Positions 34,131 through 57,947 of a stretch of DNA of 64,000 bases are shown here, piece after piece; position 1 is the stretch's first letter, and the number at the start of each line of letters is the position of its first letter. The translations under genes were made by a program, and so were the position numbers. The notes under the pieces are model-generated. The model searched no databases and was not told where the DNA came from. It saw only the letters and a program-made list of their open reading frames with translations. The stretch is taken from NCBI GenBank assembly GCA_963718615.1, contig OY970368.1, positions 2,688,001 through 2,752,000 on the forward strand, in the 5' to 3' direction. This stretch comes from an uncultured cyanobacterium. GTDB lineage: Bacteria; Cyanobacteriota; Cyanobacteriia; PCC-9006; JAAUQQ01.

Positions 34131-34235
34131 ACCAATCGATTATGACAGCTCAGGAATCGGCTGATGCCTGTCCTGATTTTTGTCTTCTGGGTTAGAAATA
34201 GAAAGAAAGTTAGATTCGCTCAGGGGTCTTTATCC

Positions 34236-37200
34236 ATGGCTGTGATTACGATTCGGGAAAAGGCAACCACGGATTCTGATTTTACGGCGGTGGTGAGTTT
34301 TGATGGTCAGGTCGAGTACCCGGTCTCAATCAGCGATCCGTTTGCGGAACGGCCCAATCAGGAAAAGGAGCTGGAGTGGTATTTCGAGGGCTGGCTGCGG
34401 ATGCCGATGCTGGATACCACCATTGCGGAGCGGGCTGCGGCGAGCGTTGCGACCTATGGGGAACGTTTGTTCCAGCAGGTTTTCAAGGCGAATGCGGATG
34501 CCTATGCGGACTACCGAGGGTTGCGCAATCAGCTCAGCCAAGTTCAAATCGAGATTCAGGGCAGTTCTCCGGCGTTTCAGGCGTTGCATTGGGAGGCGCT
34601 GAAGGATCCGGATTTGCCGCGCCCGTTTGTGGTGGATGCGGTGATGTTGCGCAAGGATGTGCGGCCCAAGAGCAGCCGGGTGACGATGCAGCCGTCGCCG
34701 GTGATTAATTTGCTGGTGGTGACGGCGCGGCCCGATGAAGAAAAGGATGTGGGCTACCGGACGATTTCTCGGCCCCTGATCGAGGCGATTCAGCAGGCAC
34801 AACTACGGGTGAATGTTGAGCTGCTGCGTCCGGCGACGTTCCGGGCGCTGAGTGAGCATTTGCAGGAAAAGGGCGAGGGGTTTTATCACATTGTCCATTT
34901 TGATGCCCATGGCGGGTTGATGACCCACGGGCAGTTTCAGCAAGGGGTGGAGCGGAACCGCTATCTCTATCAGGCGCGCTATGGCCGCAGCGATCTGCAA
35001 CCCTATGAGGGGGTGAAGGCGTTTTTGTTTTTGGAAGGGGATAAGGCGGGGGAGGCGGACCCGGTGGAGGCGTCGGAATTGGCGGAGCTGCTGACGGGTA
35101 AGGGCGTGCCGGTTTGTATTCTGAATGCCTGCCAGTCTGCCAAGCAGGAGGGGCCGGTGGAGACCAGTCTGGGCAGTCGGCTGATGGCGGCGGGGATGCA
35201 GATGGTGGTGGCGATGGGTTATTCGGTGACGGTGACGGCGGCGCAGATTTTGATGGAGAAGCTGTACGCCAAACTGTTTGAACAGAAGGGGATGGCGGAG
35301 GCGATGCGGCTGGGGCGGCTGGAGCTGTATAACCGCAAGGAGCGGCGGGCCTATTTTAATCAGATGATTGATCTGGAGGATTGGCTGTTGCCGGTGGTTT
35401 ATCAGAACCGGACGGTGGAGCTGAATCTGCGGGAGTTTTCGCCCCAGGAGGAGAATGCCTATTACGAGGCGCTGGGGCGTCAGTTTCAGTTTGGCGTGAA
35501 TTTTAAGGGAGCGACCTATGGGTTTGTGGGTCGGGATTTGGAGATTCTCAAGATTGAGCGGGCGCTGCTGCGGCACAATGTTTTGCTGCTGCGGGGCATG
35601 GGCGGAACGGGGAAGACGACGCTGCTGAATTATCTGCGGGAGTGGTGGCAGGGGACGCGGTTTGCCCAGGAGATTTTCTATTTTGGCTATGACGAGAAGG
35701 CATTTACGCTGGAGCAGATTGTCTTTGCCATGGGTCAGCAGATCTACAGCCCAGCGGATATGTTGTCGTTTCAGGCGATGGGGCTGGTGGCGCAGGTGGC
35801 GAAGCTGAGTGCGAAGCTGAAGGCAGAGCCGTTTGTGTTGATGTTGGATAATTTGGAGTCGGTGACGGGGCAGGCGTTGGCGATTCAGAATACGTTGCCG
35901 CTGGCGGAGCAGGAGAAGATTCGGGATTTTCTGGCGCGGCTGGTGGGGGGCAAGACGCGGGTGCTGTTGGGCTCGCGCAGTCCGGAGGATTGGCTGAAGA
36001 CGGTGTATGGCGAGAATGTCTATCCGTTGCGCGGGTTGGATCAGGAGTCGCGGACAGTGTTGGCGGAGAAGATTTTGGCGCGGCAGGTGAAGGATGGGGG
36101 GCGGATTGAGCAGATTCGGGTGGATGCGGAGTTTGGGCGGTTGATGACGCTGTTGGCGGGGTATCCGTTGGCGATGGAGGTGGTGTTGGCGAATTTGGCG
36201 CGGCAGTCGCCTGCTGAGGTGTTGGCGGGGTTGGATGGGGCGGATGTGGATTTGGATGGGGGGAGCGGAGCGGGGGCGGCGGCTGGGGGGCAGGACAAAA
36301 CAACCAGCATTTTGAAATGTGTGGAGTATTCTCACAGTAATTTGTCGCCGGAGGCGCAGCGGTTGCTGTTGTGTTTAGCTCCGTTTCGGGGGTTTATTTT
36401 TCGGGATGCTTTGCCGCAATATGCTGCGCAGTTGAAGCAATTGGATGCGTTTTCGGATTGGGATTTTGGGCTGCTGGAGGGGGCGGTGCAGGAGGCGATG
36501 GATTGGGGGTTGCTGTCGCCGATTTCTGAGGAAACAGATCGGTTGTTGCGGATTCAGCCGGTGTTTCCCTATTTTTTGCGGACGAAGCTGCGGGAGCTGG
36601 ATGAAGAGGTTCAGGCGGCGCTGCGGGAGGGGTTTAAGAATCACTGTCGGGGGTTGGCGCAGTCTTATTTTCAGTTAATGACTTCGAAGGAGGCACAGGA
36701 GCGGCAGCTTGGGATTTTCTTCTGTCGGTTGGAGTATGAGAACTTGTATGCCGCATTGGAAACTTGTCTAACGCAGCAGGAAGAATTTTCGATTTTTCGC
36801 TGTCTCGATCAGTTTTTAGATCTTTCCGGTGATGTTCAATCGCGATTGGTGCTGTGCCAGCTCGTTTGTGAACAGGCTGGAAACTATCCCGCCGAGCAAT
36901 GCCTGGGTGAACGGGCAACTGATATCGCTGAAGCCTTATTGAAATTGGGAAATTGTTATTACAAAGCCCAGCAATACGAAACTGCTCAAGAAGCGTATCA
37001 GCAAAGTATTGAAATCCTGAAGCAATCCGGCAATCGCCAAGACTCAGCCACGGTCTACCACCAGTTGGGAATCGTCGCCCAGCAATTGCGCGAGTATGAG
37101 GAAGCCCGCCGCAACTATCAGCAGGCGCTGGAAATCTTTGTTGAATTTGGCGATCGCTACTCCCAAGCCAGCACCTACGGCCAGTTGGGAACAGTTGCTC

Positions 37201-37994
37201 TGGAATTGCGCGAGTATGACGAAGCCCGCCGCAACTATCAGCAGGCCCTCGAAATCTTTGTCGAATTTGGCGATCGCTACACCCAAGCCCGCACCTACCA
37301 CCAGTTGGGAAGGGTCGCCGAGGAATTGCGCGAGTATGACGAAGCCCGCCGCAACTATCAGCAGGCCCTCGAAATCTTTGTCGAATTTGGCGATCGCTAC
37401 ACCCAAGCCAGCACCTACCACCAGTTGGGAATCGTCGCCGAGGCATTGCGCGAGTATGACGAAGCCCGCCGCAACTATCAGCAGGCCCTCGAAATCAAAG
37501 TCGAATTTGGCGATCGCTACACCCAAGCCAGCACCTACCACCAGTTGGGAAGCGTCGCCCAGAAATTGCGCGAGTATGACGAAGCCCGCCGCAACTATCA
37601 GCAGGCCCTCGAAATCAAAGTCGAATTTGGCGATCGCTACGAGCAAGCCAGCACCTACGGTCAGCTCGGCCTCCTAGCTGCAGCCCAAGAAAACTACACC
37701 GAAGCCGGTCGCGCTCTGCTCCAAGCCCTAGAAATCTTCGCTGAATTTAACGATCAACATTCAGTTGCCCAGACCATTCAAAACCTCAACCGCCTCTACC
37801 AAACCACCCAAGACGCAACCCTCCTCACCGCCGCCGCCCAACTCCTCAACACCACCCCAGACGAACTCAAAGCCGCCCCGACGCCTTCCGCACAAACCAT
37901 CCTCACCCGCACCCAAGGCAGCTGGGGCCAGAAAACTCGTGAGGAAATCGACGCTCAAATTGCACAACAGCGGCAACAGGACTGGGGAGAATAA
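34236..37994 (+). CDS. CHAT (caspase-like) protease - NB-ARC/STAND NTPase - TPR protein
   Basis: HIVHFDAHG and LNACQS dyad; GMGGTGKTT Walker A, LMLDNLE Walker B, GYPLAM; C-terminal TPRs; ATG 34236. Confidence 0.9.
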   Translation: MAVITIREKATTDSDFTAVVSFDGQVEYPVSISDPFAERPNQEKELEWYFEGWLRMPMLDTTIAERAAASVATYGERLFQQVFKANADAYADYRGLRNQLSQVQIEIQGSSPAFQALHWEALKDPDLPRPFVVDAVMLRKDVRPKSSRVTMQPSPVINLLVVTARPDEEKDVGYRTISRPLIEAIQQAQLRVNVELLRPATFRALSEHLQEKGEGFYHIVHFDAHGGLMTHGQFQQGVERNRYLYQARYGRSDLQPYEGVKAFLFLEGDKAGEADPVEASELAELLTGKGVPVCILNACQSAKQEGPVETSLGSRLMAAGMQMVVAMGYSVTVTAAQILMEKLYAKLFEQKGMAEAMRLGRLELYNRKERRAYFNQMIDLEDWLLPVVYQNRTVELNLREFSPQEENAYYEALGRQFQFGVNFKGATYGFVGRDLEILKIERALLRHNVLLLRGMGGTGKTTLLNYLREWWQGTRFAQEIFYFGYDEKAFTLEQIVFAMGQQIYSPADMLSFQAMGLVAQVAKLSAKLKAEPFVLMLDNLESVTGQALAIQNTLPLAEQEKIRDFLARLVGGKTRVLLGSRSPEDWLKTVYGENVYPLRGLDQESRTVLAEKILARQVKDGGRIEQIRVDAEFGRLMTLLAGYPLAMEVVLANLARQSPAEVLAGLDGADVDLDGGSGAGAAAGGQDKTTSILKCVEYSHSNLSPEAQRLLLCLAPFRGFIFRDALPQYAAQLKQLDAFSDWDFGLLEGAVQEAMDWGLLSPISEETDRLLRIQPVFPYFLRTKLRELDEEVQAALREGFKNHCRGLAQSYFQLMTSKEAQERQLGIFFCRLEYENLYAALETCLTQQEEFSIFRCLDQFLDLSGDVQSRLVLCQLVCEQAGNYPAEQCLGERATDIAEALLKLGNCYYKAQQYETAQEAYQQSIEILKQSGNRQDSATVYHQLGIVAQQLREYEEARRNYQQALEIFVEFGDRYSQASTYGQLGTVALELREYDEARRNYQQALEIFVEFGDRYTQARTYHQLGRVAEELREYDEARRNYQQALEIFVEFGDRYTQASTYHQLGIVAEALREYDEARRNYQQALEIKVEFGDRYTQASTYHQLGSVAQKLREYDEARRNYQQALEIKVEFGDRYEQASTYGQLGLLAAAQENYTEAGRALLQALEIFAEFNDQHSVAQTIQNLNRLYQTTQDATLLTAAAQLLNTTPDELKAAPTPSAQTILTRTQGSWGQKTREEIDAQIAQQRQQDWGE
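37047..37665 (+). repeat. 120-bp (40-aa TPR) tandem array, about 5 near-identical units
   Basis: TTGCGCGAGTATGA[CG]GAAGCCCGCCGCAACTATCAGCAGGC recurs every 120 bp; each unit contains a HIP1 site. Confidence 0.95.
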
Positions 37995-47141: not shown

Positions 47142-47596
47142 TTAGCTGTTTAGAAGTAGATCACTGACTCAAAATACTTTTCGTCTGAGAACGACGCTTT
47201 TATGCAACGGCGTGTATCTTTTTAGGCGCTTTCCGAGCATTTCCGATATAAATATTTAAGTACAATTGACCCAAAACTCGCATCATCCTTTCGAACGATA
47301 AAAAAGAATCAAGTTTTGTAAGTCTCCATTGTGTTTGGGGGGCGATCGCCACAAAACGCATTGATATTCGAAATAGATCCTTAAGATATTAAGAGATCAG
47401 ACAGCCCGCCCTAATAATGAGGGACCTCAGGCAGATCTTGAGTTCAATCGCTGCATCTACAGATCCCATCATTAGCCCTGCAAAATGCCTTGATCCTCTG
47501 TTCTTCTCCCAGTATTTTTATCCCAGTATTTCTATATCCAGGGCAATCGGATCCGTTCATGCATCTTGCTGGCTCATTTCTCTCTATGTTGCCCCT

Positions 47597-48466
47597 ATGC
47601 CTGGTCGATTTTTAACTGATACCGCGTTGGAAGTTCCAGCCGTGACGGCTGAACAGATGCAAGAAGTGGCTCGTGTAGCTCTTGAAGAAACAGGGCCTAA
47701 TCTGTTTCAGATGACAGAAAGTGCAGGCAGAAGCTTTGCACTGCAAGCACTGGATTGCCTCTCAGCCCTTCGGTCTTCCAGATCCGATTCTCCTTCCCAG
47801 ACACCTCGGTCATCCCAGCCCCACGTCCTGCTCTTAGCAGGCTCTGGAACCAACGGAGCAGGAGGCATTAGCGCAGCTCGGCACCTGCTGAAGCAGCAAA
47901 TTCGCGTGACGCTCTGTCTCGCAAAACCGGATCATCTCAGCGATATCACCCGCTGGCAGTTTTATTTGTTTCAGCAGGCGATCGCCCCTCCCCCTTTCCC
48001 CCCAGCCCCCGGTCCACATTTAGCGATCGTCCCGGATCCTGGCCCATCGTCACCCAGCAGTACTAGCCTCACCCCTGAACAGCTATTTGACCTGGATCCC
48101 CCCGCAGATCTCATCCTAGATGCTCTGATGGGCTATCATCTCACCACCGCCCCGGAAGGTAATTTTCTGCGGTTGATCCGCTGGGCCAACCACAGTCAAA
48201 TTCCTATCCTGTCCTTGGACGTGCCCTCTGGTATAAATTCGACCACGGGCGAAGCCCTAGGGGAAGCGATTCGGGCCAGCTGGACTTTGACCTTATCGCT
48301 GCCCAAGACCGGCCTGCGGCCCGAAAGTACGGGAGCCCTGTTCCTCGCCGACATTGGGATTCCGGCCCGAACCTATGCCTGGAAGAGCCTACGCCTCTCC
48401 TACTGCTCTCCCTTTGGCAGTCGCTACCGAATTCCCCTGGAATTTTACGAGAACCATAACCTGTAA
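47597..48466 (+). CDS. stand-alone YjeF-N / NAD(P)H-hydrate epimerase-like protein
   Basis: VTAEQM, M.E.AG, DAL.GY, SLDVPSG, LADIGIP; ATG 47597. Confidence 0.8.
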   Translation: MPGRFLTDTALEVPAVTAEQMQEVARVALEETGPNLFQMTESAGRSFALQALDCLSALRSSRSDSPSQTPRSSQPHVLLLAGSGTNGAGGISAARHLLKQQIRVTLCLAKPDHLSDITRWQFYLFQQAIAPPPFPPAPGPHLAIVPDPGPSSPSSTSLTPEQLFDLDPPADLILDALMGYHLTTAPEGNFLRLIRWANHSQIPILSLDVPSGINSTTGEALGEAIRASWTLTLSLPKTGLRPESTGALFLADIGIPARTYAWKSLRLSYCSPFGSRYRIPLEFYENHNL

Positions 48467-48539
48467 AAGTCCTTTAGAGAGGTGACGGAAACAAAATAGA
48501 TCCGTACAATTGGGGTCCTCCCGTTTGATGGTTCTTCCC

Positions 48540-49997
48540 ATGACCTCCTCTCGATTGCTTGAGCTCGCAAAACAAGGCAGCGCCCCAGCGATCGCCACGC
48601 TGCTCAACCAGCAGTTACAGGCTAAGGGAATTTCGGCGATCGCATCTCGCCAAGGTCACTGTTTGCGGCTGCTTCTAGAGGCTGAGACGGAACCTCGGCA
48701 GGGCGCGATGGAGCAATATTTGCAGCATGCGTTTACGAAGCTAGAAGCGCTTTCTATTCAGCAGATTGAGGTTTATGGACGCGCGAAGGGATCCCTCAAA
48801 GGTTGGCAAACGCTGCTCTGTTTAAGCAACGGCTCGTTTGAACCAGCCACGTTCGTTTTTCCGAAGGTCTCATCTCAGTCATTCTCCCGACGAACGTCTC
48901 AATCGGCTCAATCCTCCCCTGCAATTTCGGCTAGAACTTCGGCCAAAACTTCAGTCAGAACCTCGACCCAAACATTACCCCAGCCTGTGGTCAAAACCTC
49001 GCTATCCAAGGGCTGGCGTCAGTCTTTTCCTCAGTTTCGGCGGCCTCGTTTTTTACAGCGACTGCAACCTGCCCCAACACCCACGCCCCAAACCCCTAAG
49101 CCCCCAACGTCCGCGAGCCCTCTTCGTTCTTTCTCCCCCCAAACCCCAATCGCCTTGCCCAAAATCTTGAGCGGTTCGTTTTGGAAAACTCGAACGAGTC
49201 AGATGTATCAGCAAACGATGCAGGTGCTCCATCGGCTTAGTCAGGGTCTACAGGATTGGGTTCTTCAGCCGATTGCTGAGTTTTTGGGTATTTGGTTGCA
49301 GTGGCAAATTGCAACGTTTGCCGCAACGTTAGTCACTGGATTTTTCGCAACGGTGAGTCTAGGGCTGATCTTTTTTGGCATTTTTAGTTTGTTTAATCGG
49401 ATTCCAGAGACGCAAGAATTCTTCCCGGTGCTCATGGGGATGATGACGATGATTCCGATCGCGGGTCTGCTGCTAGGTGATGCGCAAACGCGGCTCTTGC
49501 AACGCTGGCTACGACCCATCGGAGCGTGGCGATGGCTGACGATGGTGGGGTTTATGTTGGGATTTGGGGTGGCGCTGGGGATGCATTTTTTGATTTGCGC
49601 GATCGTTGAACCGCTGTTAACCCGGCCCAATCCAGAGTTTGTGATTGGTGTAAGTTTTGCCTTTATTGCAGTGACGATTGCGGTCGGATTAGGATTTGGG
49701 GTGCTCGGAGCACTGCAATGGTTGCCCCTGCGCGCCAGGGTGCCTCAGGCTTCCCAATGGATGATTATTAATCCCCTGGGGGCGATCGCCAGTTGGATTC
49801 TAGGAATGTTGATCGCGGGTCGTTGGCTGGGGCCGCTTTTGTTGGGCGATCGCGCTTCGGGTTCTAGTTTTTGGTCGACGCTCGGTCTATTTTTTGGAGG
49901 AGGCTTGCTCTCTTGGTTAATTTTTCATCTGATTAGCGGAGTCACGATGGCGCAGCTTTTGCGGCGGTTGCCTCGGCTGGAGGATGAGCGTTTATGA
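48540..49997 (+). CDS. membrane protein with cyanobacterial LELAKQG N-terminal domain
   Basis: LLELAKQG..AIA.L.N..L...GI, Ser/Pro-rich linker, about 6 C-terminal TM helices. Confidence 0.78.
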   Translation: MTSSRLLELAKQGSAPAIATLLNQQLQAKGISAIASRQGHCLRLLLEAETEPRQGAMEQYLQHAFTKLEALSIQQIEVYGRAKGSLKGWQTLLCLSNGSFEPATFVFPKVSSQSFSRRTSQSAQSSPAISARTSAKTSVRTSTQTLPQPVVKTSLSKGWRQSFPQFRRPRFLQRLQPAPTPTPQTPKPPTSASPLRSFSPQTPIALPKILSGSFWKTRTSQMYQQTMQVLHRLSQGLQDWVLQPIAEFLGIWLQWQIATFAATLVTGFFATVSLGLIFFGIFSLFNRIPETQEFFPVLMGMMTMIPIAGLLLGDAQTRLLQRWLRPIGAWRWLTMVGFMLGFGVALGMHFLICAIVEPLLTRPNPEFVIGVSFAFIAVTIAVGLGFGVLGALQWLPLRARVPQASQWMIINPLGAIASWILGMLIAGRWLGPLLLGDRASGSSFWSTLGLFFGGGLLSWLIFHLISGVTMAQLLRRLPRLEDERL

Positions 49998-50058
49998 TCT
50001 CAACTAAATCAAAATCGGTTGTCAGGGGTTTTGAATTGTTGGGTCACTGAATTCGAGT

Positions 50059-50247
50059 GTGTTGGGGTTTCATCAGGTTTCGGAGCAGGCTCAAGCCCGT
50101 CTGGGGGAGCTGTTGGAGCGCACTCGGGTGGCTCAGTTGACGCCGGGTGAGGTGGCTGAGCTGGATTTGTATGAGCAATTGGACCAGATGATGCGGATGC
50201 TGAAGATGCGGACGTTTGCGATCGCCCCTCAGGCCAAGGTTTCTTGA
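50059..50247 (+). pseudogene. small antitoxin-like protein remnant
   Basis: SE.AQARL.ELLE.....LT..E.AELD.YE resembles small partners of HNH/TA toxins; 5' end seems broken (ATG 49994 frame stops at 50050). Confidence 0.4.
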
Positions 50248-50573
50248 GTGTTTTCGGTTGGAGGGTGCGATCGCCCGGACTCCAAAATCACCGCTGTCAC
50301 CGCTTCCACTGATTTTGCTTGTAGGGTGGATACAAGACACAGCGCTTTATCAACCAAGCGAGCGGCGTCCTCGTAGCTTTCTTGATTCGGCAAAACCAAT
50401 TGAATCGGCTGACCTTGATCGTCGGTGCCAACGGTTTTGTTGGCTTGGAAAATGCGTAGTCGAGGGTTGGGATGGGAAATTTCGGTCCAGTCGTGCTTGA
50501 GCAGGTAGGCCGCGAAATCAGCGGGCGGGAGAGCCCCGACTTGAGGGGAACTGGTGAGAATTTCGGCGGTCAT
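50229..50573 (-). CDS. hypothetical protein
   Basis: ATG 50573 is coupled (ATGA) to the upstream remnant; YL...W....., QLVLP....Y.D motif. Confidence 0.6.
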   Translation of the reverse strand: MTAEILTSSPQVGALPPADFAAYLLKHDWTEISHPNPRLRIFQANKTVGTDDQGQPIQLVLPNQESYEDAARLVDKALCLVSTLQAKSVEAVTAVILESGRSHPPTENTQETLA

Positions 50574-50725
50574 GGCCACTCTCCTGTCTTGACTTTCTGC
50601 ATTAAGGCTAGCAAAGATTCTGGGGTTAGGCGTTGTCGGCGATCGATGCGGATGCGAACGGTGCGCCGGTTATCGCTGAGGCTGCCGCTCAAATACTCCC
50701 AGTAGCAGGCTCCGCGTAGCTTCAT
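50570..50725 (-). pseudogene. C-terminal remnant of a DUF4365-like PD-(D/E)XK protein
   Basis: Translated by hand: MKLRGACYWEYLSGSLSDNRRTVRIRIDRRQRLTPESLLALMQKVKTGEWP*. Confidence 0.55.
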
Positions 50726-50828
50726 TACTAGAATATTGGCCGAGTCGAGATTTTGGGACCAGTTTATGAAGCATATTTTTCGATGGAATTTCTTAAAGGG
50801 GGGTAACAGATGAGAGTGTTATGGGAGT

Positions 50829-51896
50829 ATGATTCCTGAGCTACCAGGGTTTGATATGAGTGAGATCGATGCTCGGGATTACGCTGATTTTTTCTGTACT
50901 GTGCAGGAGCGGATTCGCGATCGCCAACTCAATGCGCTGCGCAAGATCAACCATGAACTGGTTTCGCTCTATTGGGAAATTGGGCAGTTGATTCACCAGA
51001 AGCAGGAAGCTTTGGGCTGGGGAAAGTCGGTTGTCGAAACGCTGGCGCGAGATTTGCAGACAAACTTTCCTGGGCAAAAGGGCTTCTCGGCTCAAAATTT
51101 GTGGTTCATGCGCCAGTTTTATGACGAGTATGCTGACCAACCAAATCTCCAACCACTGGTTAGAGAAATCAGTTGGACCAAAAATCTGGTGATTTTCAGT
51201 CGCTGTAAGGATATGTTGGAGCGGGAGTTTTACCTACGGGCGACGGCTCGCTATGGCTGGACTAAGCGGGTGCTTCAGCATCAGCTAGATAACAAAAGCT
51301 ATGAGAAGTTCTTGCTCAATCAGACCAATTTTGAGGAAACGCTGCCGGAGGAAATTAAGGGGCAAGCGCTGCTGGCGCTGAAGGACCGTTATACGTTTGA
51401 TTTTTTGGAGTTGGCGGATGCCCATTCGGAGCGGGAGCTAGAGCTAGCGCTGGTGCAGAATGTGCGGGTGTTTTTGGCTGAGCTGGGTGGGGCGTTTGCG
51501 TTTCTAGGGAATCAGTATCGCTTGGAGGTGGGTGGGCAGGAGTATTTTATTGATTTGCTGCTGTTCCATCGGCGATTGCGCTGTTTGGTGGCGATCGAGC
51601 TAAAAATTGGGGAGTTTAAGCCGGAGCATAAGGGCAAGATGGAGTTTTATTTGGAGGCGTTGGACCGGCAGGAGCGGATGGAGGGGGAGAATGCGCCGAT
51701 TGGGATGATTATTTGCCGTTCTAAGAATAAGACGGTGGTGGAGTATGCGTTGCGGACGGCGAGTCGTCCGATTGGGGTGGCAACCTATGAGATTGTGCCG
51801 CAGTTGCCGGAGGCTTATCGGGAGGAGTTACCGAGTCCAGAGGCGATCGCGGAACGACTAAGACTTTGGGATGCAAGAAAGGTTGAAGATCAATGA
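50829..51896 (+). CDS. yhcG: YhcG / DUF1016 PD-(D/E)XK nuclease
   Basis: LYWEIG, GFS.QNL..MRQFY, KD.Y.FDFL, IDLL.FHR.LRCLVAIELK. Confidence 0.92.
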   Translation: MIPELPGFDMSEIDARDYADFFCTVQERIRDRQLNALRKINHELVSLYWEIGQLIHQKQEALGWGKSVVETLARDLQTNFPGQKGFSAQNLWFMRQFYDEYADQPNLQPLVREISWTKNLVIFSRCKDMLEREFYLRATARYGWTKRVLQHQLDNKSYEKFLLNQTNFEETLPEEIKGQALLALKDRYTFDFLELADAHSERELELALVQNVRVFLAELGGAFAFLGNQYRLEVGGQEYFIDLLLFHRRLRCLVAIELKIGEFKPEHKGKMEFYLEALDRQERMEGENAPIGMIICRSKNKTVVEYALRTASRPIGVATYEIVPQLPEAYREELPSPEAIAERLRLWDARKVEDQ

Positions 51897-51947
51897 ATTG
51901 AGAGATATGTCCTACCTCAAAAAGAGGTAGGGGGCTGGGGGTGGCAG

Positions 51948-54900
51948 TTAGGGCCACTGCTTGCAGATGTCGCGGGTGGTTTGGAGGAGGGTGGAGAAGG
52001 TTGCGTCGTTGCTGAGGTGGAGGAGGATGAGGGGGCGGATTTTGGGGAGGGCTTTGAGGAGGGCACTGCGGTTTTGGTAGGCGAGGGTGTCGAGGGTTTT
52101 GGCCCAGTCGGGGAAGGTTGGGGTGAGTTGGAGGAGGTGGGGCAGGAAGCCTTGCAGGGCTTTGGCGCGGAAGTAGGGGTCTTGGATATTCCAGGCGGCT
52201 TGTAGGGATTGGGGGAGGAGTTCGGGGGGGAGATGCTCGGCTAAACCGCTCAGGGCGATTGCCCGACTGGACTCGTCTTTGAGTTGAGAGGCCATTCCTA
52301 GCACTTCAGATAAAAGTTCCGGGAACAACTGCTTGCAGAGTCTAATCAGTGTCCAAAGCTGAAGAGCCCGCTGTCTTTCATCTTTGAGTTCTCGGGTGAC
52401 TTCCAGTGCTTCGGGCAATAACTCCGGCAACTGTTTCGAGAGTTCTACCAGGGCATCAGCTCGCTGCCATTCCTCTTTGAGCCCTCGGGTGACCTCCAGT
52501 GCTTCGGGCAATAGCTCGGGCAACTGTTCTGAGAGTTTTCTCATTCCCCAAGCCCGCTGCCATTCATCTTTGAGCTCTCGGGTGACTTCTAGCGCTTCGG
52601 GCAATAGCTCGGGCAACTGTTTCGAGAGTTCTCTCAGTGCAGAAGCCCGCTGCCTTTCATCCTTGATGTCTCGGGTGACCTCCAGTGCTTCGGGCAATAG
52701 CTCAGGCAACTGTTTGGAAAGTTCTATCAGTGCATCAGCCCGCCGCCATTCAGCCTTGATGTCTCGGGTAACCTCCAGTGCTTCAGGCAATAGCTCCGGC
52801 AACTGTTTCGAGAGTTCTATCAGTGCATCAGCCCGCCCCCCTTCATCCTTGATCTCTCGGGTGACCTCCAGAGCTTCGGGCAATAGCTCCGGCAACTGTT
52901 TCGAGAGTTCTCTCAGGGCATCAGCCCGCGATCCTTCATCTTTGAGTTCTCGGGTGACCTCCAGAGCTTCGGGCAATAGCTCCGGCAACTGTTTCGAGAG
53001 TTCTCTCAGGGCATCAGCCCGCTGCCATTCATCCTTGATGTTTCGGGTGACCTCCAGCGCTTCCGGCAATAGCTCCGGCAACTGTTTCGAGAGTTCTCTC
53101 AGGGCAAAAGCCCGCTCCCATTCCTCTTTGAGTTCTCGGGTGACCTCCAGTGCTTCGGGCAATAGCTCCGGTAACTGTTTTGAGATTTCAATCAGGGCAA
53201 AAGCCCGCTGCCATTCCTCTTTGAGTTCTCGGGTGAGCTCCAGCGCTTCGGGCAATAGCTCCGGCAACTGTTTGGAGAGGTCTCTCAGTGCATAAGCCCG
53301 CTGCTGTTCATTCTTGATATCTCGGGTGAGCTCCAGCGCTTCTGGCAATAGCTCGGGCAACTGTTTGGAGAGGTCTATCAGTGCATAAGCCCGCTGCCAT
53401 TCATCTTTGATCTCACGCGTGACTTCCAGCACTTCTGGCAATAGATCGGGCTGTCTTTCCGCTAAGGCCACCAAAGCCTCCGCTCGATCCGCTACATCGT
53501 TCATGCTTCGAGCCAGATCAAGGACCTCACCCAGATAACTAGCAGGCAGCTTAGAAGATAACTGAGTGATCGCAAAGGCACGATAGGAAAAACCTTCATT
53601 TTGATGGCGATGATTCCCAAAACGATCCTGAATCTGACGAATTGTTTCCAAAACCTCCGGCCAAAACTGCGGAAACCGTTCTGCCAGCTCAGCCAATACA
53701 TAGGACCGATAGGCCGCATCCCGAATCCCAGCCACCGCCCGCAACACCTCATCCAACAACGCCTCCGGCATATAGGGCACAATTGCAGCAATACACGCCG
53801 CCCGCTGCCAAGGATTCTGCGCCTGCTGGGCATAGGCCAACCCCTGGGCCGGTGACCAAACCTCCGCCTGCACCAACGCCCCCACCAATGACCCAGGCAC
53901 ATTACTCGCCAAACTATTCAACGATCCCCGGATCAAGGCATAGCGCCACAACAGCACCAGCGTCTCCCCCGGTGCCGCCTGATAATTCTCCACCGCCAGC
54001 CGCCAAGCCCGCCCCAGATCATTGACAAATCCCGCCGGTTTGCCGATCGCCTCACAAGCCTCAAACCACCCATTCTGCCCCCGCCCATTGCTCGCCGCCA
54101 ACAACCGATGAATCTCCTGGGGCTGCCGCGCCTGCTCCAGGTGCCAAGTCAACTGGGCAAAAATATAGCCATCATCCGCCAGCGTATGCCACTGCCCCTG
54201 GTCCGTCCGCGCCCGATACCGCTGCAAAAACTCACTGTGGGCCTCCGCCTTCGTCAGCCCCAGCCCCGGCAAATCCCCCGGCTCCAGAGGTTGCGGCGGA
54301 CTGATCAACAACCGCTGGGCCAAATCATGCATCAAATCATGCATCCGGTACGTCCGCCGATTGCCCGACCGCTTCACCCCCTGCAACAACAACGCCTTCG
54401 CACTAAACGTCCGCAAAATCGACCCCGCTTGCCGCGCCGTCACCTGCCACAACATCACCGCCATCTCCTGGGTCAAGCTCACATCCTCCGGCACAATCCC
54501 CAACCAAGCAAACTGCCGCAACTGCTCCAGCGAAAGCTGCTTCAGACTCAGGTTAAAACAAGCCAGCAAACTGTACCTGCGCCGCTTGGCATCATCCGGG
54601 ATATCCTCCCGCCCATACAAATCCAACCCCTCCAGCCGCGCCACCTCATCCCGAAAATCCTCAAACAACTCCGTCCAACTCACCCCCTCCTCAATCTGCG
54701 ACGCCGCCAATTCCAACGCCAAGGGCAAATAGCCCACCCGCTGAGCAAACGCCAACGCCTGCTGCCGATCCGCCTCGCTCAACGCCTCCGACAACTTCTG
54801 CGTCATCAGTTCCAACGCCTGCTCCGGACTCATCACATCCAAGTCATAGCGGTGCGCCTCCGAAATCCGCGCCTCCCGCGTCGTCACCAACACACAACAG

Positions 54901-56105
54901 CCCGTTCCCCCCACCCGAAACGGCTCCAGATGATCCGGATTCCAAACATCATCAACAATCACCAACGCCCGCTTATCGTAGAGCAACGTCCGCAAATGGT
55001 TCGAGGCCGACTCGATCGCCGTCGGCGTAAAATCGTTATCCCCCAACGCCTGAATCCAACCGCTCAACAACGGCAAAATATCCGGACTCTGCCCCAACGT
55101 CGCCCACAAAATCCCATCACAAAACCGCGCCTGCACCTGATCATCATGGGCCAACTTCGACGCCAACACCGACTTGCCAATGCCCCCCAAGCCATAAATC
55201 GCACTCACCACCAGTGTCCCGTAGGTCCTCGCATCCTCACAGAGCAACTGCTGCTTTACCTGTTCCTGGTGTTCAGGCCGCTCGACAAAATGATCCGGCA
55301 GCGGCGGCATTTGCAGCGGAATCGCCCGGTTGCGGTAAGACTGGGGCGCTGGCTTCTGGGCTACCTGGGACTCCGGCGGCACAGTGCCAAACGTCAGAAT
55401 CATCGACCCACTCGTACTGTGACACCGAAAGCCCTGAATCTGACCCTTCAGCCGCTGCTCCAGGGAATGGGTCAACGCCCCACTCGTCACATCCCCCCGG
55501 CTCGGGTCCAACCCCTCCAAGAGCGCAGCGGTCAAAACACTGTAGGGCGACGCCAAATCTTCGTAGGATGCCTCAAAATCGCGGGAAGACGTGATGAAAT
55601 AGCGATCGCGCACCTTCCCCCCCTTCGTACTCGTCAACTCACCAAAATTCAACAACGTTCCACTACTGCAACAATCCAACCAAACAATCTGCTGCCGCAC
55701 CGCGCTCTGCTCCAGCTGATCCCGCAGCCATTGCAGCTCCACCCCATAGTCATCCTCTGGGTCCCCATTGCTCGGAGCCAGATAGCCCTCCGTAGCGCTG
55801 ATAGCCTTCTTCCAACCATGTCCCGAAAAATACAGCAACGCCGTATCCGGCACCTGATCGCTGCTGGGCGGGTTAAACAGTTGAACGATGGCTTCCCGCA
55901 TTTGCTTTCGAGTCACCGGAATTTGCTGAGCGACCTGAGGATTCCCGGAGGCGATCGCCTCCGGCAACCGTTTCACCGTCGTAAAACGCCCGTGCTGCTC
56001 TAGGCGTTGGGCGATCGCCTCCGCATCCGTCGCAGGTGCTTTGAGATTGCCAAATTTGGAATGAGAATAGCAGTTGATACCAACAATCAGGGCGTCTCGA
56101 CTCAT
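51948..56105 (-). CDS. caspase (C14) - NB-ARC - Apaf-1-like helical - helical repeat protein
   Basis: ALIVGIN.Y, YFSGHG and WLDCC dyad; GLGGIGKS, IVDDVW, VTTR, LPLAL, MHD motifs; 31-aa repeats. Confidence 0.92.
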   Translation of the reverse strand: MSRDALIVGINCYSHSKFGNLKAPATDAEAIAQRLEQHGRFTTVKRLPEAIASGNPQVAQQIPVTRKQMREAIVQLFNPPSSDQVPDTALLYFSGHGWKKAISATEGYLAPSNGDPEDDYGVELQWLRDQLEQSAVRQQIVWLDCCSSGTLLNFGELTSTKGGKVRDRYFITSSRDFEASYEDLASPYSVLTAALLEGLDPSRGDVTSGALTHSLEQRLKGQIQGFRCHSTSGSMILTFGTVPPESQVAQKPAPQSYRNRAIPLQMPPLPDHFVERPEHQEQVKQQLLCEDARTYGTLVVSAIYGLGGIGKSVLASKLAHDDQVQARFCDGILWATLGQSPDILPLLSGWIQALGDNDFTPTAIESASNHLRTLLYDKRALVIVDDVWNPDHLEPFRVGGTGCCVLVTTREARISEAHRYDLDVMSPEQALELMTQKLSEALSEADRQQALAFAQRVGYLPLALELAASQIEEGVSWTELFEDFRDEVARLEGLDLYGREDIPDDAKRRRYSLLACFNLSLKQLSLEQLRQFAWLGIVPEDVSLTQEMAVMLWQVTARQAGSILRTFSAKALLLQGVKRSGNRRTYRMHDLMHDLAQRLLISPPQPLEPGDLPGLGLTKAEAHSEFLQRYRARTDQGQWHTLADDGYIFAQLTWHLEQARQPQEIHRLLAASNGRGQNGWFEACEAIGKPAGFVNDLGRAWRLAVENYQAAPGETLVLLWRYALIRGSLNSLASNVPGSLVGALVQAEVWSPAQGLAYAQQAQNPWQRAACIAAIVPYMPEALLDEVLRAVAGIRDAAYRSYVLAELAERFPQFWPEVLETIRQIQDRFGNHRHQNEGFSYRAFAITQLSSKLPASYLGEVLDLARSMNDVADRAEALVALAERQPDLLPEVLEVTREIKDEWQRAYALIDLSKQLPELLPEALELTRDIKNEQQRAYALRDLSKQLPELLPEALELTRELKEEWQRAFALIEISKQLPELLPEALEVTRELKEEWERAFALRELSKQLPELLPEALEVTRNIKDEWQRADALRELSKQLPELLPEALEVTRELKDEGSRADALRELSKQLPELLPEALEVTREIKDEGGRADALIELSKQLPELLPEALEVTRDIKAEWRRADALIELSKQLPELLPEALEVTRDIKDERQRASALRELSKQLPELLPEALEVTRELKDEWQRAWGMRKLSEQLPELLPEALEVTRGLKEEWQRADALVELSKQLPELLPEALEVTRELKDERQRALQLWTLIRLCKQLFPELLSEVLGMASQLKDESSRAIALSGLAEHLPPELLPQSLQAAWNIQDPYFRAKALQGFLPHLLQLTPTFPDWAKTLDTLAYQNRSALLKALPKIRPLILLHLSNDATFSTLLQTTRDICKQWP
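52365..53450 (-). repeat. 93-bp (31-aa) tandem array, about 12 units
   Basis: LPELLPEALEVTRxxKxExxRAxALxELSKQ repeated; DNA near-identical outside a few codons. Confidence 0.95.
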
Positions 56106-56148
56106 GGGGGGAAGAAAGGGGGTGGGAGGGCGATCGCTTTAATCTTGC

Positions 56149-57105
56149 TCAATTCTCATCTGCCAGCCAAACTGCTAGATCATCCACACTTGAAAAGTCT
56201 AAAAAAGCCTCATTTAAGCATTCCAATCGAGCAAGCGAGAGCTGCATAACTTTCGCCTCCAGTTCGCTGGGTAAAGATCCGAGAGTCCGACTCAAAAGCC
56301 TTAAAACTAGCGATCGCTGACGCTCTAATATCGTTGCTCGTTCCCGCACCGCACCTTCCTCAAGGCCCTCCTGCTTTCCCTCCTGCCGGGACGTATCAAC
56401 CACATTATTCAAATCTCGATAATATTTAAGGCTATTTTGGTAGCTTTCCTGCTCTATTTGAGAAAAATTAGCAATCTCAGCAACCTCAAAAAGCTGTTCA
56501 AAGATCTCTTCTTGTAAGGGTTGGGGGCGATCGCTCAGTTCTGCCAAATGCTTGAGCAAGAATAGCCACTTATCAAAATGAGTTTCTAACTGATCCAAGG
56601 ATTTGGTAAATTTTGGTAATTCCAGATAAATAAACTTGAGTTTGTCATAAAAGACTTCACATCGCTGATTTTTAAGTTCAACAACATGGAGTAGCTCCTG
56701 CTCATTTTTATGGTCATCAAACACAAAGTCCAAGACTCCAACAGTATAAACCGCTGCTAGTTCAAAGTTCCAATCCCCTCGAATGGCTTGTTCTTGAATT
56801 GGGAATGTTGCGTAATAGATACTCCTATCTTTGAAAAAGTTCTGTTTGGCTTTCTGGATTTCAACAATGAAGCGATCGCCGTTGTCGGCCTGGCAGTAAA
56901 TGTCAAAAATTGCCTTGCGATCGACAAGGGTATTACCAAGATTCTCACTATTCTTAAACACCACATCTGCAATGTGATGATGCTCGGGCAAAAGGGTATT
57001 TAGAAAATCAATCAACAGCCGTTTGTTTGGCTCTGTGCCGAAGACACGCTTGAAGCCAAAGTCGGTGAGTAGGCTGATGTATCTGTCTTGTAGGGGATAG
57101 AGCAT
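56149..57105 (-). CDS. Rpn-family PD-(D/E)XK nuclease with DUF4351-like C-terminus
   Basis: LTDFGFKRVFG, DI.C......FIVEIQ, YLELPKF, QEG repeats, LE.L.EA.LDF...DL..WL. Confidence 0.9.
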   Translation of the reverse strand: MLYPLQDRYISLLTDFGFKRVFGTEPNKRLLIDFLNTLLPEHHHIADVVFKNSENLGNTLVDRKAIFDIYCQADNGDRFIVEIQKAKQNFFKDRSIYYATFPIQEQAIRGDWNFELAAVYTVGVLDFVFDDHKNEQELLHVVELKNQRCEVFYDKLKFIYLELPKFTKSLDQLETHFDKWLFLLKHLAELSDRPQPLQEEIFEQLFEVAEIANFSQIEQESYQNSLKYYRDLNNVVDTSRQEGKQEGLEEGAVRERATILERQRSLVLRLLSRTLGSLPSELEAKVMQLSLARLECLNEAFLDFSSVDDLAVWLADEN

Positions 57106-57132
57106 GGCGATCGCAATAGAATTAAATAGGCT

Positions 57133-57498
57133 TTAGGAAGCAGCAATGATGCCCTCATCGGCTCCTTTTGACTCATTGCAAGATGGACAGGTAATCCAAA
57201 GATTTGTAGTAACGACCGCGAGTTCAGGATTTTTAGACAGTGGCTTTTTATGATCGATATGAGAGCCTTTCAGTGGAATTGGAGTTTGGCAAATGGCACA
57301 ACATCCCGATTGATACAAATACTGTTGTGCTTTCCAGGTCTGACCAGCTGTAGAATCCCGCCATCGATTAAAGCAAGCCCTCGGCGAATATTTTTGATGG
57401 ATGCGATCGCTGTCCTTCTTAAACTGGGTGATCTGTATTTTCTTGATTTTCGATAGTTCAAATATGCCTTGAACCAAATCTTTAAACGGAGATTTCAT
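57133..57498 (-). CDS. HNH endonuclease
   Basis: CAIC, HIDH..PLS, N....C..CN..K. Confidence 0.88.
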   Translation of the reverse strand: MKSPFKDLVQGIFELSKIKKIQITQFKKDSDRIHQKYSPRACFNRWRDSTAGQTWKAQQYLYQSGCCAICQTPIPLKGSHIDHKKPLSKNPELAVVTTNLWITCPSCNESKGADEGIIAAS

Positions 57499-57947
57499 CG
57501 CTGCTGACCTGTCTGCTGACCTATCGTTTCCTTTTCGATTTCCTGTTTGCTGACTTCACGCTTACCTCGATGGGTTGCAGCGATCGCTTCCAATTCTACG
57601 AGCTGCTGTTCTTTGAGGTGCATTGTTTGTAGCAGCGTTTGAGCCAATGCTCCGATCTCCGAAGTCGGCTGCTGAGCCACAAAGATCACAAGGTTATCCA
57701 ATCGGGCAGTAAGCTGTTTGAGAATGTCAGCAAGACAGGCTTTAGTTGCCAGACGGGTACGGGGTTGAGCGGCATAGACACGAATTGCCTGGATAACCTG
57801 ACGTAAATCATAGGTATAGGCACGTCCGAGACTGCCGATGGATTGCAAAGATCTTGTAATCACAGAAGCCTGATATCGCGAAGCCCCATACCCGACCAGT
57901 TGCGCACGCGTCACAGATTGCAAATCAAGTTCCAGATCTTTGGTCAT
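57495..57947 (-). CDS. hypothetical protein (possible N-terminal HTH)
   Basis: 150-aa ORF; stop overlaps the HNH start (ATGA). Confidence 0.7.
   Translation of the reverse strand: MTKDLELDLQSVTRAQLVGYGASRYQASVITRSLQSIGSLGRAYTYDLRQVIQAIRVYAAQPRTRLATKACLADILKQLTARLDNLVIFVAQQPTSEIGALAQTLLQTMHLKEQQLVELEAIAATHRGKREVSKQEIEKETIGQQTGQQR

Follow-up and report, generated by a model that had tools for sequence, protein, structure and literature searches.

Gene organization and base composition of the locus

We analyzed a window of 64,000 nucleotides from an uncultured cyanobacterium (assembly GCA_963718615.1, contig OY970368.1, positions 2,688,001 to 2,752,000 of the forward strand; coordinates without a label are those of the window), in which the base composition reverses around the repeat array of an immune-like gene. 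This gene, here termed locus B, spans the flip on the minus strand (51948-56105), where its open reading frame (ORF), translation and Pfam matches define a caspase-NB-ARC-repeat protein of 1385 aa. The matches comprise Peptidase_C14 at residues 5-219 (7.5e-13), NB-ARC at residues 279-471 (2.2e-22) and APAF1_C (3.2e-4). With an NB-ARC NTPase, an N-terminal effector and C-terminal repeats of 31 residues, the product has the constituents by which STAND/NLR-like proteins are recognized. The repeats are encoded by an array of 11.7 copies of a 93-bp unit (52365-53451, minus strand), for which Tandem Repeats Finder (TRF) gave a period of 93, 87% matches and no indels, and they matched no Pfam repeat family at E <= 0.001.

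Two arms of opposite composition flank the array. The left arm (49166-52291; skew of +0.13 to +0.49 in 500-bp windows) is G/T-rich on the plus strand and covers the C-terminal half of a membrane-like ORF (48510-49997, plus strand), the interval 49998-50828, a yhcG-type PD-(D/E)XK nuclease gene (50829-51896, plus strand; Pfam YhcG_C 9.9e-60, DUF1016_N 1.8e-45) and, on the minus strand, the final ~100 codons of the NLR-like gene. The right arm (53463-56105), which is C/A-rich on the plus strand, holds the caspase and NB-ARC parts of that gene, with G/T-ending codons on the coding (minus) strand. The initial annotation had described the surroundings of the array as gene debris, which we could not confirm: the interval 49998-50828 (GC skew +0.21) simply has no recognizable gene (one ORF scanned, no Pfam match).

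On the plus strand, 49250-52240 contains G 1026, C 560, T 808 and A 597 (GC skew +0.29, T-A skew +0.15), and 53650-56000 contains G 484, C 910, A 556 and T 401 (GC skew -0.31, T-A skew -0.16). The array itself is the near-neutral center of the flip (G 272, C 324; GC skew -0.09), and the extremes in 500-bp windows are +0.49 and -0.41. These two intervals had been named as G-rich and C-rich in the initial annotation, whose counts of 31 G and 5 C at 52021-52080 and of 29 C and 6 G at 54661-54720 proved exact on recounting. Its statement that the switch brackets the array also held when the cumulative skew was computed. The cumulative GC skew has its minimum at 49166 and its maximum at 52291, 74 nt ahead of the array, and the cumulative T-A curve peaks at 53463, 12 nt past it, the array being enclosed between the two peaks.

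The strength of the flip was expressed as a contrast, defined as the GC skew of the left 2 kb minus that of the right 2 kb with a gap of 1.1 kb. Over the whole 6.10-Mb genome, which consists of one contig, the standard deviation of this contrast is 0.123 and that of the 1-kb GC skew is 0.107. The contrast of 0.63 at locus B is attained by 0.09% of 24,363 genome positions; the flip is real and far beyond chance. An assembly artefact was rejected, with reading frames and Pfam domains found intact, and a search of 48000-57500 for the terminal inverted repeats of an inserted element returned only short matches containing HIP1.

The same flip is found at locus A, a plus-strand CHAT-NACHT-TPR gene identified through Pfam (34164-37994) with a 120-bp array (37055-37738). 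Here the cumulative GC maximum (36955) falls 100 nt ahead of the array, third codon positions count G 74 / C 5 over aa 601-700 and C 51 / G 12 over aa 1101-1200, and the contrast of 0.47 is attained by 0.6% of the 24,363 positions. The initial annotation had argued that the flip is independent of gene orientation, as the two loci lie on opposite strands and share the same plus-strand polarity. This argument is void, since a G-rich block followed by a C-rich block is its own reverse complement, and a pattern tied to gene direction would thus give an identical plus-strand polarity on either strand. The dependence on the strand is nevertheless real, and is established by the C-ending tail of the NLR-like gene, by neighbors in both orientations and by paralogues, as detailed below.

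Recurrence of the flip at variable modules across the genome

Segmentation of the genome by G+T excess yielded 292 skewed segments. Among neighboring pairs at most 4 kb apart the order (+,-) occurs 44 times, as against 17 (-,+), 16 (+,+) and 17 (-,-) pairs. At an absolute contrast of at least 0.5 there are 28 G-to-C flips versus 4 C-to-G flips (gaps of 0-1.8 kb), and 2 of these 4 are junctions between adjacent units. A replication terminus was rejected as the source of the pattern: the skew in 100-kb bins is irregular, the cumulative curve is not V-shaped, and the 28 flips are local.

Long-period arrays were then collected blind to skew (period of at least 60, at least 2.5 copies and at least 300 bp), giving 37 arrays, or 35 after merging. 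At 18 of the 37 the left 2 kb have a skew of +.15 or more together with a skew of -.13 or less in the right 2 kb, and none shows the reversed arrangement. The contrast is positive at 32/35 arrays and reaches.3 at 21/35, compared with ~2% of random positions, with none at -.3 or below. Viewed from the flips, 18/44 lie within 750 bp of a long-period array, where random placement gives an expectation of 0.63 and a maximum of 4 in 2000 draws. The longer the array, the higher the contrast (rho.52, p.0013), which also rises with TRF score (rho.56, p.0004); no skew pattern was seen at 148 short-period arrays.

A long-period array is present at 15 of the 28 strong flips. Where it is absent, the flips that were checked have restriction-enzyme specificity modules at their centers, and others lie in TPS-domain exoprotein genes. 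The restriction-type centers are a Type I hsdS between hsdR and hsdM, two ORFs with MmeI-type target-recognition domains (TRDs) and the middle of an Eco57I/MmeI-like gene; all seven significant matches to Methylase_S or MmeI_TRD modules in the genome have contrasts of.34-.62. The Eco57I/MmeI-like gene is the extreme case, with third positions (G3, C3, A3 and T3) moving from G3 73 / C3 0 / A3 2 / T3 25 at aa 401-500, that is, 98% G or T, to G3 4 / C3 77 at aa 1101-1200, and a gene for a TPR-CHAT protein passes from G3 78 / C3 2 to C3 64 / G3 9. Such modules are generally known to set specificity and to vary by recombination. The initial annotation, in tying the flip to immune-like repeats, was therefore right about its presence there but too narrow, as restriction-enzyme specificity modules carry it too.

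Strand dependence at synonymous sites

Within the single NLR-like gene, codons ahead of the array end in G/T and those beyond it in C/A. At 54606-54905 third positions count G 73 / C 7, and T greatly outnumbers A; windows inside the array count G 37-43 / C 17-20 (four-fold sites G.32 / C.33); and over the last ~100 codons (52056-52355) the preference is reversed, at C 53 / G 16, and A outnumbers T. Four-fold degenerate sites are 70% G in aa 150-850 and 89% C in the tail, against 30% G and 36% C genome-wide. Two-fold sites agree: the G-rich part has a T/(T+C) of.83 and a G/(G+A) of.92, and the corresponding values in the tail are.15 and.19. The C-terminal tail (51948-52245; plus strand G 146 / C 37) is thus coded on the minus strand and yet matches the composition of the left arm with its C/A-ending codons, and the composition shifts sharply near 52245. 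The neighboring yhcG gene, on the plus strand, has G/T-ending codons (third-position GC skew, or GC3 skew, of +0.59; four-fold G.56, C.14). The plus strand is G-rich over both this tail and yhcG, and the composition tracks the DNA strand rather than the reading direction. In the arms, four-fold GC is ~.85 versus.66 genome-wide, four-fold sites are 70-79% G and 5-17% T, and two-fold sites range over.78-1.0 in T/(T+C) and over.87-.95 in G/(G+A).

Strongly skewed DNA is poor in stop codons, and ORF lists are for this reason unreliable in the arms. A 631-aa ORF (54108-56003, plus strand) antisense to the NB-ARC/caspase part is such a by-product of stop-codon depletion. Near the arrays, neighboring ORFs whose coding strand is the C-rich one obey the strand in 16/21 cases on the left and 15/22 on the right (31/43 in all). 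As false ORFs are to be expected here, nine of these wrong-way ORFs were checked against Pfam. Six were verified (Peptidase_S8, Uma2, PIN, Peptidase_M20, TPR-CHAT and TPS), among them a Peptidase_S8 gene with C3 167 / G3 14 in its first 774 nt, and three had no match.

Paralogues placed on different sides of a module provide the cleanest evidence. Two HsdM paralogues of this genome, compared by the third base at shared codons, show G 77, T 42, C 22 and A 6 upstream of one hsdS and C 90, A 27, G 21 and T 9 downstream of another. Similarly, in another genome (G184) two same-strand yhcG genes around one hsdS have GC3 skews of +0.64 upstream and -0.72 downstream. The sign is set by position relative to the module and not by gene family, and a simple gene-direction effect is rejected, the Pfam-verified wrong-way genes and the paralogues all obeying position.

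A subtler link to transcription could nevertheless be envisaged, in which R-loops and transcription-coupled repair make the 5' non-template strand G-rich, and antisense or convergent transcription acts on the 3' part. Many flips do lie inside one gene or same-strand operon that is G-rich at its 5' end and C-rich at its 3' end, and genes of at least 1100 aa without arrays lean the same way (mean difference.148; 6 versus 0 beyond +/-0.5). WD40 genes of one family (f5) are G-rich on one side only, and the ORF that bears the array is more strongly skewed than the DNA around it. Against this, the G-rich strand is not the non-template strand of each gene: it fails to be so in the six Pfam-verified arm genes, of which Peptidase_S8, Peptidase_M20, PIN and Uma2 are C-ending from their own 5' end, and in HsdM and yhcG downstream of hsdS, which are C3-rich. 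Moreover, a Phormidesmis contig holds the C-rich state over 7 kb of genes in alternating orientation, ordinary metabolic genes included, all obeying the strand (plus-strand genes C3.47-.63; minus-strand genes G3.33-.57, and.42-.57 in 4/5), and DNA outside any ORF is skewed as well. We therefore regard transcription as an improbable cause.

Decay with distance and extension across gene boundaries

Averaged over the 35 arrays, the skew in successive 500-bp bins outward is.24,.20,.17,.16,.10,.11,.09 and.03 on the left and -.18, -.17, -.19, -.17, -.13, -.08, -.06 and -.02 on the right. The array-anchored signal thus falls to about zero by 3.5-4 kb and stays near zero beyond. It does not stop at the ends of the array-bearing ORF. 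In the first kb outside, the mean is +.127 on the left (28/33 positive) and -.142 on the right (25/33 negative), and this fades to about zero by the fourth kb. Neighboring genes are strongly skewed (.32,.21) where the flank within the ORF is short, as on the left side of locus B. Non-ORF DNA in the arms has skews of +.23 (22/27 segments positive) and -.23 (31/37 negative). The HIP1 palindrome GCGATCGC is rarer in the arms of the 35 arrays than in the genome (0.89 versus 1.44 per kb), as expected if the skew disfavors palindromes.

Conservation in other genomes

Eight loci with NLR homologues were recovered from named cyanobacterial assemblies, of which six are G-rich over the N-terminal part and two weakly so; the orthologue in a sister genus (G002) has G3 322 / C3 78. 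Five of the loci have at least 2 kb of downstream sequence, and four of these become C-rich at the 3' end or shortly beyond it, in downstream genes that are unrelated among the four genera. The homologue is split into four ORFs in a metagenome-assembled genome (L037 8010-11862) and into two in Adonisia turfae (L034 8001-12369), as either decayed copies or assembly frameshifts.

The restriction loci extend the pattern further. Among HsdR homologues from 19 genomes of many families (50-91% identical), the coding GC3 skew is -.2 or lower in 17/19, and the pattern is kept in loci whose HsdR is 50-86% identical, so that high G+C and skew persist across diverged relatives. Thirteen Type I loci from other cyanobacterial families have at least 5 kb of upstream sequence, two others being left out for having too little. 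In 12/13 the upstream DNA is G-rich and a C-rich state begins at about hsdS and continues into hsdR, and one locus is flat. In 4/4 Type I loci examined the cumulative maximum falls inside the Methylase_S ORF. The hsd region of E. coli K-12 shows no flip (GC3 skew -.14 to +.03).

Shared ancestry of the composition might in principle account for such conservation, if the arms consisted of foreign DNA, or of gene families each with a codon usage of its own, and the flips marked the joints of a mosaic. The loci are indeed accessory defence genes, HsdR homologues 77-91% identical in six families suggest transfer, and orthologues share their sign, as the NLR and HsdR comparisons above illustrate. 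However, this explanation is contradicted by the 28 versus 4 polarity, by the decay with distance and by paralogues of opposite sign according to side, and the same sign recurs in the non-homologous downstream genes of four genera. It is already largely refuted by the decay, the polarity and the paralogues, and we consider it very unlikely. The initial annotation had held that recurrence at two arrays argues for a mechanism rather than chance, and the flip at the array, its decay and the homologous loci of other genera all agree with this. Neither outcome that it had named as a refutation, an inflection away from the array or a lack of the pattern at homologous loci, was obtained.

Neighboring genes and additional features

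Just beyond the right arm lies a gene of the PDDEXK_2 (Rpn-like nuclease/transposase) family (56149-57105, minus strand; Pfam PDDEXK_2 5e-72), with GC3 skews of +0.43 in its 3' part and -0.32 in its 5' part. Ten loci of the genome belong to this family, of which one is divided between two matches. Three are at or beside skewed arms (that of the window, and 1982517-1983194 and 2044140-2044820 in the coordinates of this genome, G000), and the rest are not. This proximity may reflect no more than common residence in defence islands.

Genes of the yhcG type directly adjoin variable modules in all three copies of this genome: one is the copy beside the NLR array described above, another lies between hsdR and hsdS, and a third is fused to hsdM just before hsdS. 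Copies other than that of the window were located at G000 5018600-5019694, G000 4446515-4449352, L127 7006-8361 and L127 9514-10542. In G184 a copy lies on either side of hsdS.

On the left of locus B, a 1.7-kb C-rich stretch (47500-49250; skew down to -0.26) extends over a YjeF_N gene and the N-terminal half of the ORF 48510-49997. It stops abruptly at ~49166, inside that ORF, where the left arm begins. Elsewhere, G000 2104401-2129600 is a stretch of ~25 kb that is nearly continuously G/T-rich on the plus strand with no C-rich partner, and includes a 10-kb run with 1-kb GC skew above 0.3. One Type I system (G000 2483187-2485544 / 2486332-2486985) looks altered, with an HsdR ORF of 785 aa, versus frames of ~1050-1090 aa in homologues, and an hsdS ORF of 217 aa with a single specificity domain.

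Insertion sequences were considered as a natural test of 'ends-in' repair. A 597-aa ORF, probably an insertion-sequence transposase, occurs in 10 near-identical copies (G000 1795945-1797735 and nine others) whose third positions are everywhere G-rich in the 5' part (+0.31) and C-rich in the 3' part (-0.29). Six other insertion-sequence families with at least three copies show no such profile. As only one of seven families fits, no general rule was obtained and the test was rejected.

Origin of the bias

The genome thus bears a position-dependent, strand-based bias at free sites, which is centered on the variable modules of defence genes, has a fixed polarity and reaches ~3 kb. On both sides, it is the strand running 5' to 3' toward the module that is enriched in G (and, where sites are two-fold degenerate, in T), both at synonymous positions and in non-coding DNA.

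The cause that we favor, tentatively and at somewhat short of an even chance, is a strand-asymmetric substitution bias arising from repeated recombinational repair centered on these modules. Breaks, or forks that collapse, would recur in or at the module and be repaired by recombination. At a central break, 5' to 3' resection would turn the strand that ends 3' at the break into a single-stranded tail; with wider degradation, the same 3'-ending strand would be the first to be rebuilt from a sister copy of the chromosome. Damage or error-prone synthesis on this strand would become fixed once its partner had been copied from it, and the module would stay neutral through being continually replaced or homogenized. 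The polarity predicted by such a model is the one observed. After bidirectional 5' to 3' resection in yeast, the mutated bases of the top strand are C on the left and G on the right, and the opposite arrangement is rare (PMC6786661). The top strand here likewise loses C on the left and G on the right (28 versus 4 flips; 32/35 arrays), and the effect falls off over kilobases, to about zero by 3.5-4 kb.

Several observations weigh against repair as the cause. The case for breaks and their repair is built on polarity, scale and location. Pure cytosine deamination predicts a T-rich exposed strand. The two-fold sites fit this prediction, and the four-fold sites do not, being 70-79% G and only 5-17% T; an extra force favoring G must therefore be assumed, for which biased conversion, insertion of C opposite lesions and oxidized dGTP in repair synthesis are candidates. 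Variants of the repeat units inside 15 arrays (those with a contrast of at least 0.3 among 17 sliced) display no left/right polarity: 107 derived G and 112 derived C were counted in the left halves, against 72 and 78 in the right halves (Fisher p.92). When positions equally far from the array are compared, the skew is.27-.32 within the ORF that bears it and.10-.14 beyond that ORF, although this comparison mixes array types and is confounded. It is a point in favor of a gene-bound component, but could also stem from younger flanking DNA. Finally, WD40 arrays of other cyanobacteria are two-sided in 0/11 cases and one-sided in four, all of family f5; the array effect is for this reason lineage-dependent, and the effect at hsdS is widespread.

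The G excess would be just as hard to explain if replication forks paused or met at the modules, leaving the lagging-strand template behind the stalled fork single-stranded, in both directions in a polyploid genome with no fixed origin. The polarity is that of a terminus, with G-rich leading strands converging. The genome lacks a global origin/terminus skew pattern, the contrast grows with array length, and bacterial Okazaki fragments would provide a reach of the order of ~3 kb. Specificity domains of restriction enzymes, on the other hand, present no obvious reason for forks to stall, and we deem this origin quite unlikely.

Selection rather than mutation could maintain the same polarity as the mutational model, were the arms kept G/T-rich on the strand of the 3' tail because such DNA recombines better. 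Put differently, the 5' half of either incoming strand is G/T-rich, and the flanks of the module would be a recombination device. RecA prefers GT-rich DNA. The pattern is kept where HsdR is 50-62% identical and synonymous sites are long saturated, and the arms are tied to the modules that set specificity. A precedent is offered by the vls cassettes of Borrelia, which have a GC skew of ~0.52 and raised G+C that are held to be selected for gene conversion (PMC11499132). In 56 arms, however, we detected no discrete Chi-like word beyond composition (best 8-mer z-score 2.9), and the count of G-quadruplex (G4) motifs, 63, lies between the 90.5 and 40.6 given by two null models. Selection would also need to act strongly on thousands of synonymous sites per locus, and non-ORF DNA and unrelated neighboring genes are affected too. 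We judge selection an unlikely explanation.

Going beyond repair as such, the arms may constitute a cassette-exchange device that flanks every exchangeable specificity module of cyanobacterial defence genes, with breaks exposing G/T-rich 3' tails that drive conversion. This is a speculative proposal with little probability attached to it. The modules would comprise the sensor arrays of NLR-like genes, the target-recognition domains of hsdS and MmeI, and the variable parts of secreted exoproteins. Breaks would be programmed or induced by nucleases, conversion would draw on other copies or on incoming DNA, and the neighboring PD-(D/E)XK nuclease genes (yhcG and Rpn-like) would be candidate break makers.

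Relationship to known asymmetries and implications

The flips share with replication-associated GC skew a basis in the strand, a preference for G and T, a location at synonymous sites, independence from orientation and the G-to-C polarity seen at a terminus. They differ in being local (~3 kb per arm), in occurring at 28 or more sites with no chromosome-wide pattern, and in being far stronger, with four-fold sites up to 79% G. The mutation clusters of resected yeast DNA agree in the loss of C on the left and of G on the right, in the kilobase span and in having one center, but they are single events caused by a deaminase or an alkylating agent (PMC6786661), unlike the present pattern, which is an evolutionary equilibrium enriched in G rather than T and for which breaks are inferred. 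The Borrelia vls locus (PMC11499132) is similar in raised G+C at free sites and strong GC skew, conserved despite divergence, at a locus of recombinational diversification; there, however, it is the cassettes that carry the skew, on their coding strand, whereas here a neutral module has oppositely skewed flanks. Silent donor cassettes were not identified here, where no search aimed at donor copies of the 93-bp repeats or of the specificity domains was made. The R-loop-associated skew of CpG-island promoters and class-switch regions (PMC3787257) resembles the flips in the G-rich non-template strand over the 5' part of genes, but the sign here follows position relative to the module and not gene direction in Pfam-verified genes. 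In the literature searched, supplements and many subscription papers aside, we found no description of GC skew flipping locally at repeat arrays or specificity domains. Strand asymmetry of composition is known in kind, and it is for the bipolar, module-centered architecture at defence genes that no account was found.

For the annotation of these genomes the arms have practical consequences. Gene finders are misled in them, as are tests that recognize foreign DNA by its codon usage and tests of synonymous rate and of selection, and the stop-poor skewed DNA gives rise to long false antisense ORFs. If the arms do record repair or exchange, base composition by itself would indicate the sites at which a bacterial genome diversifies the specificities of its immunity. 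It could then serve to detect sensor arrays and target-recognition domains without annotation, and the arms would offer an uncommon opportunity to observe mutation that acts locally and yet with enough force to determine codon choice. The pattern lends itself to testing in transformable cyanobacteria. Should the cassette-exchange proposal be true, it would represent a mechanism of immune diversification in bacteria comparable to antigenic variation.

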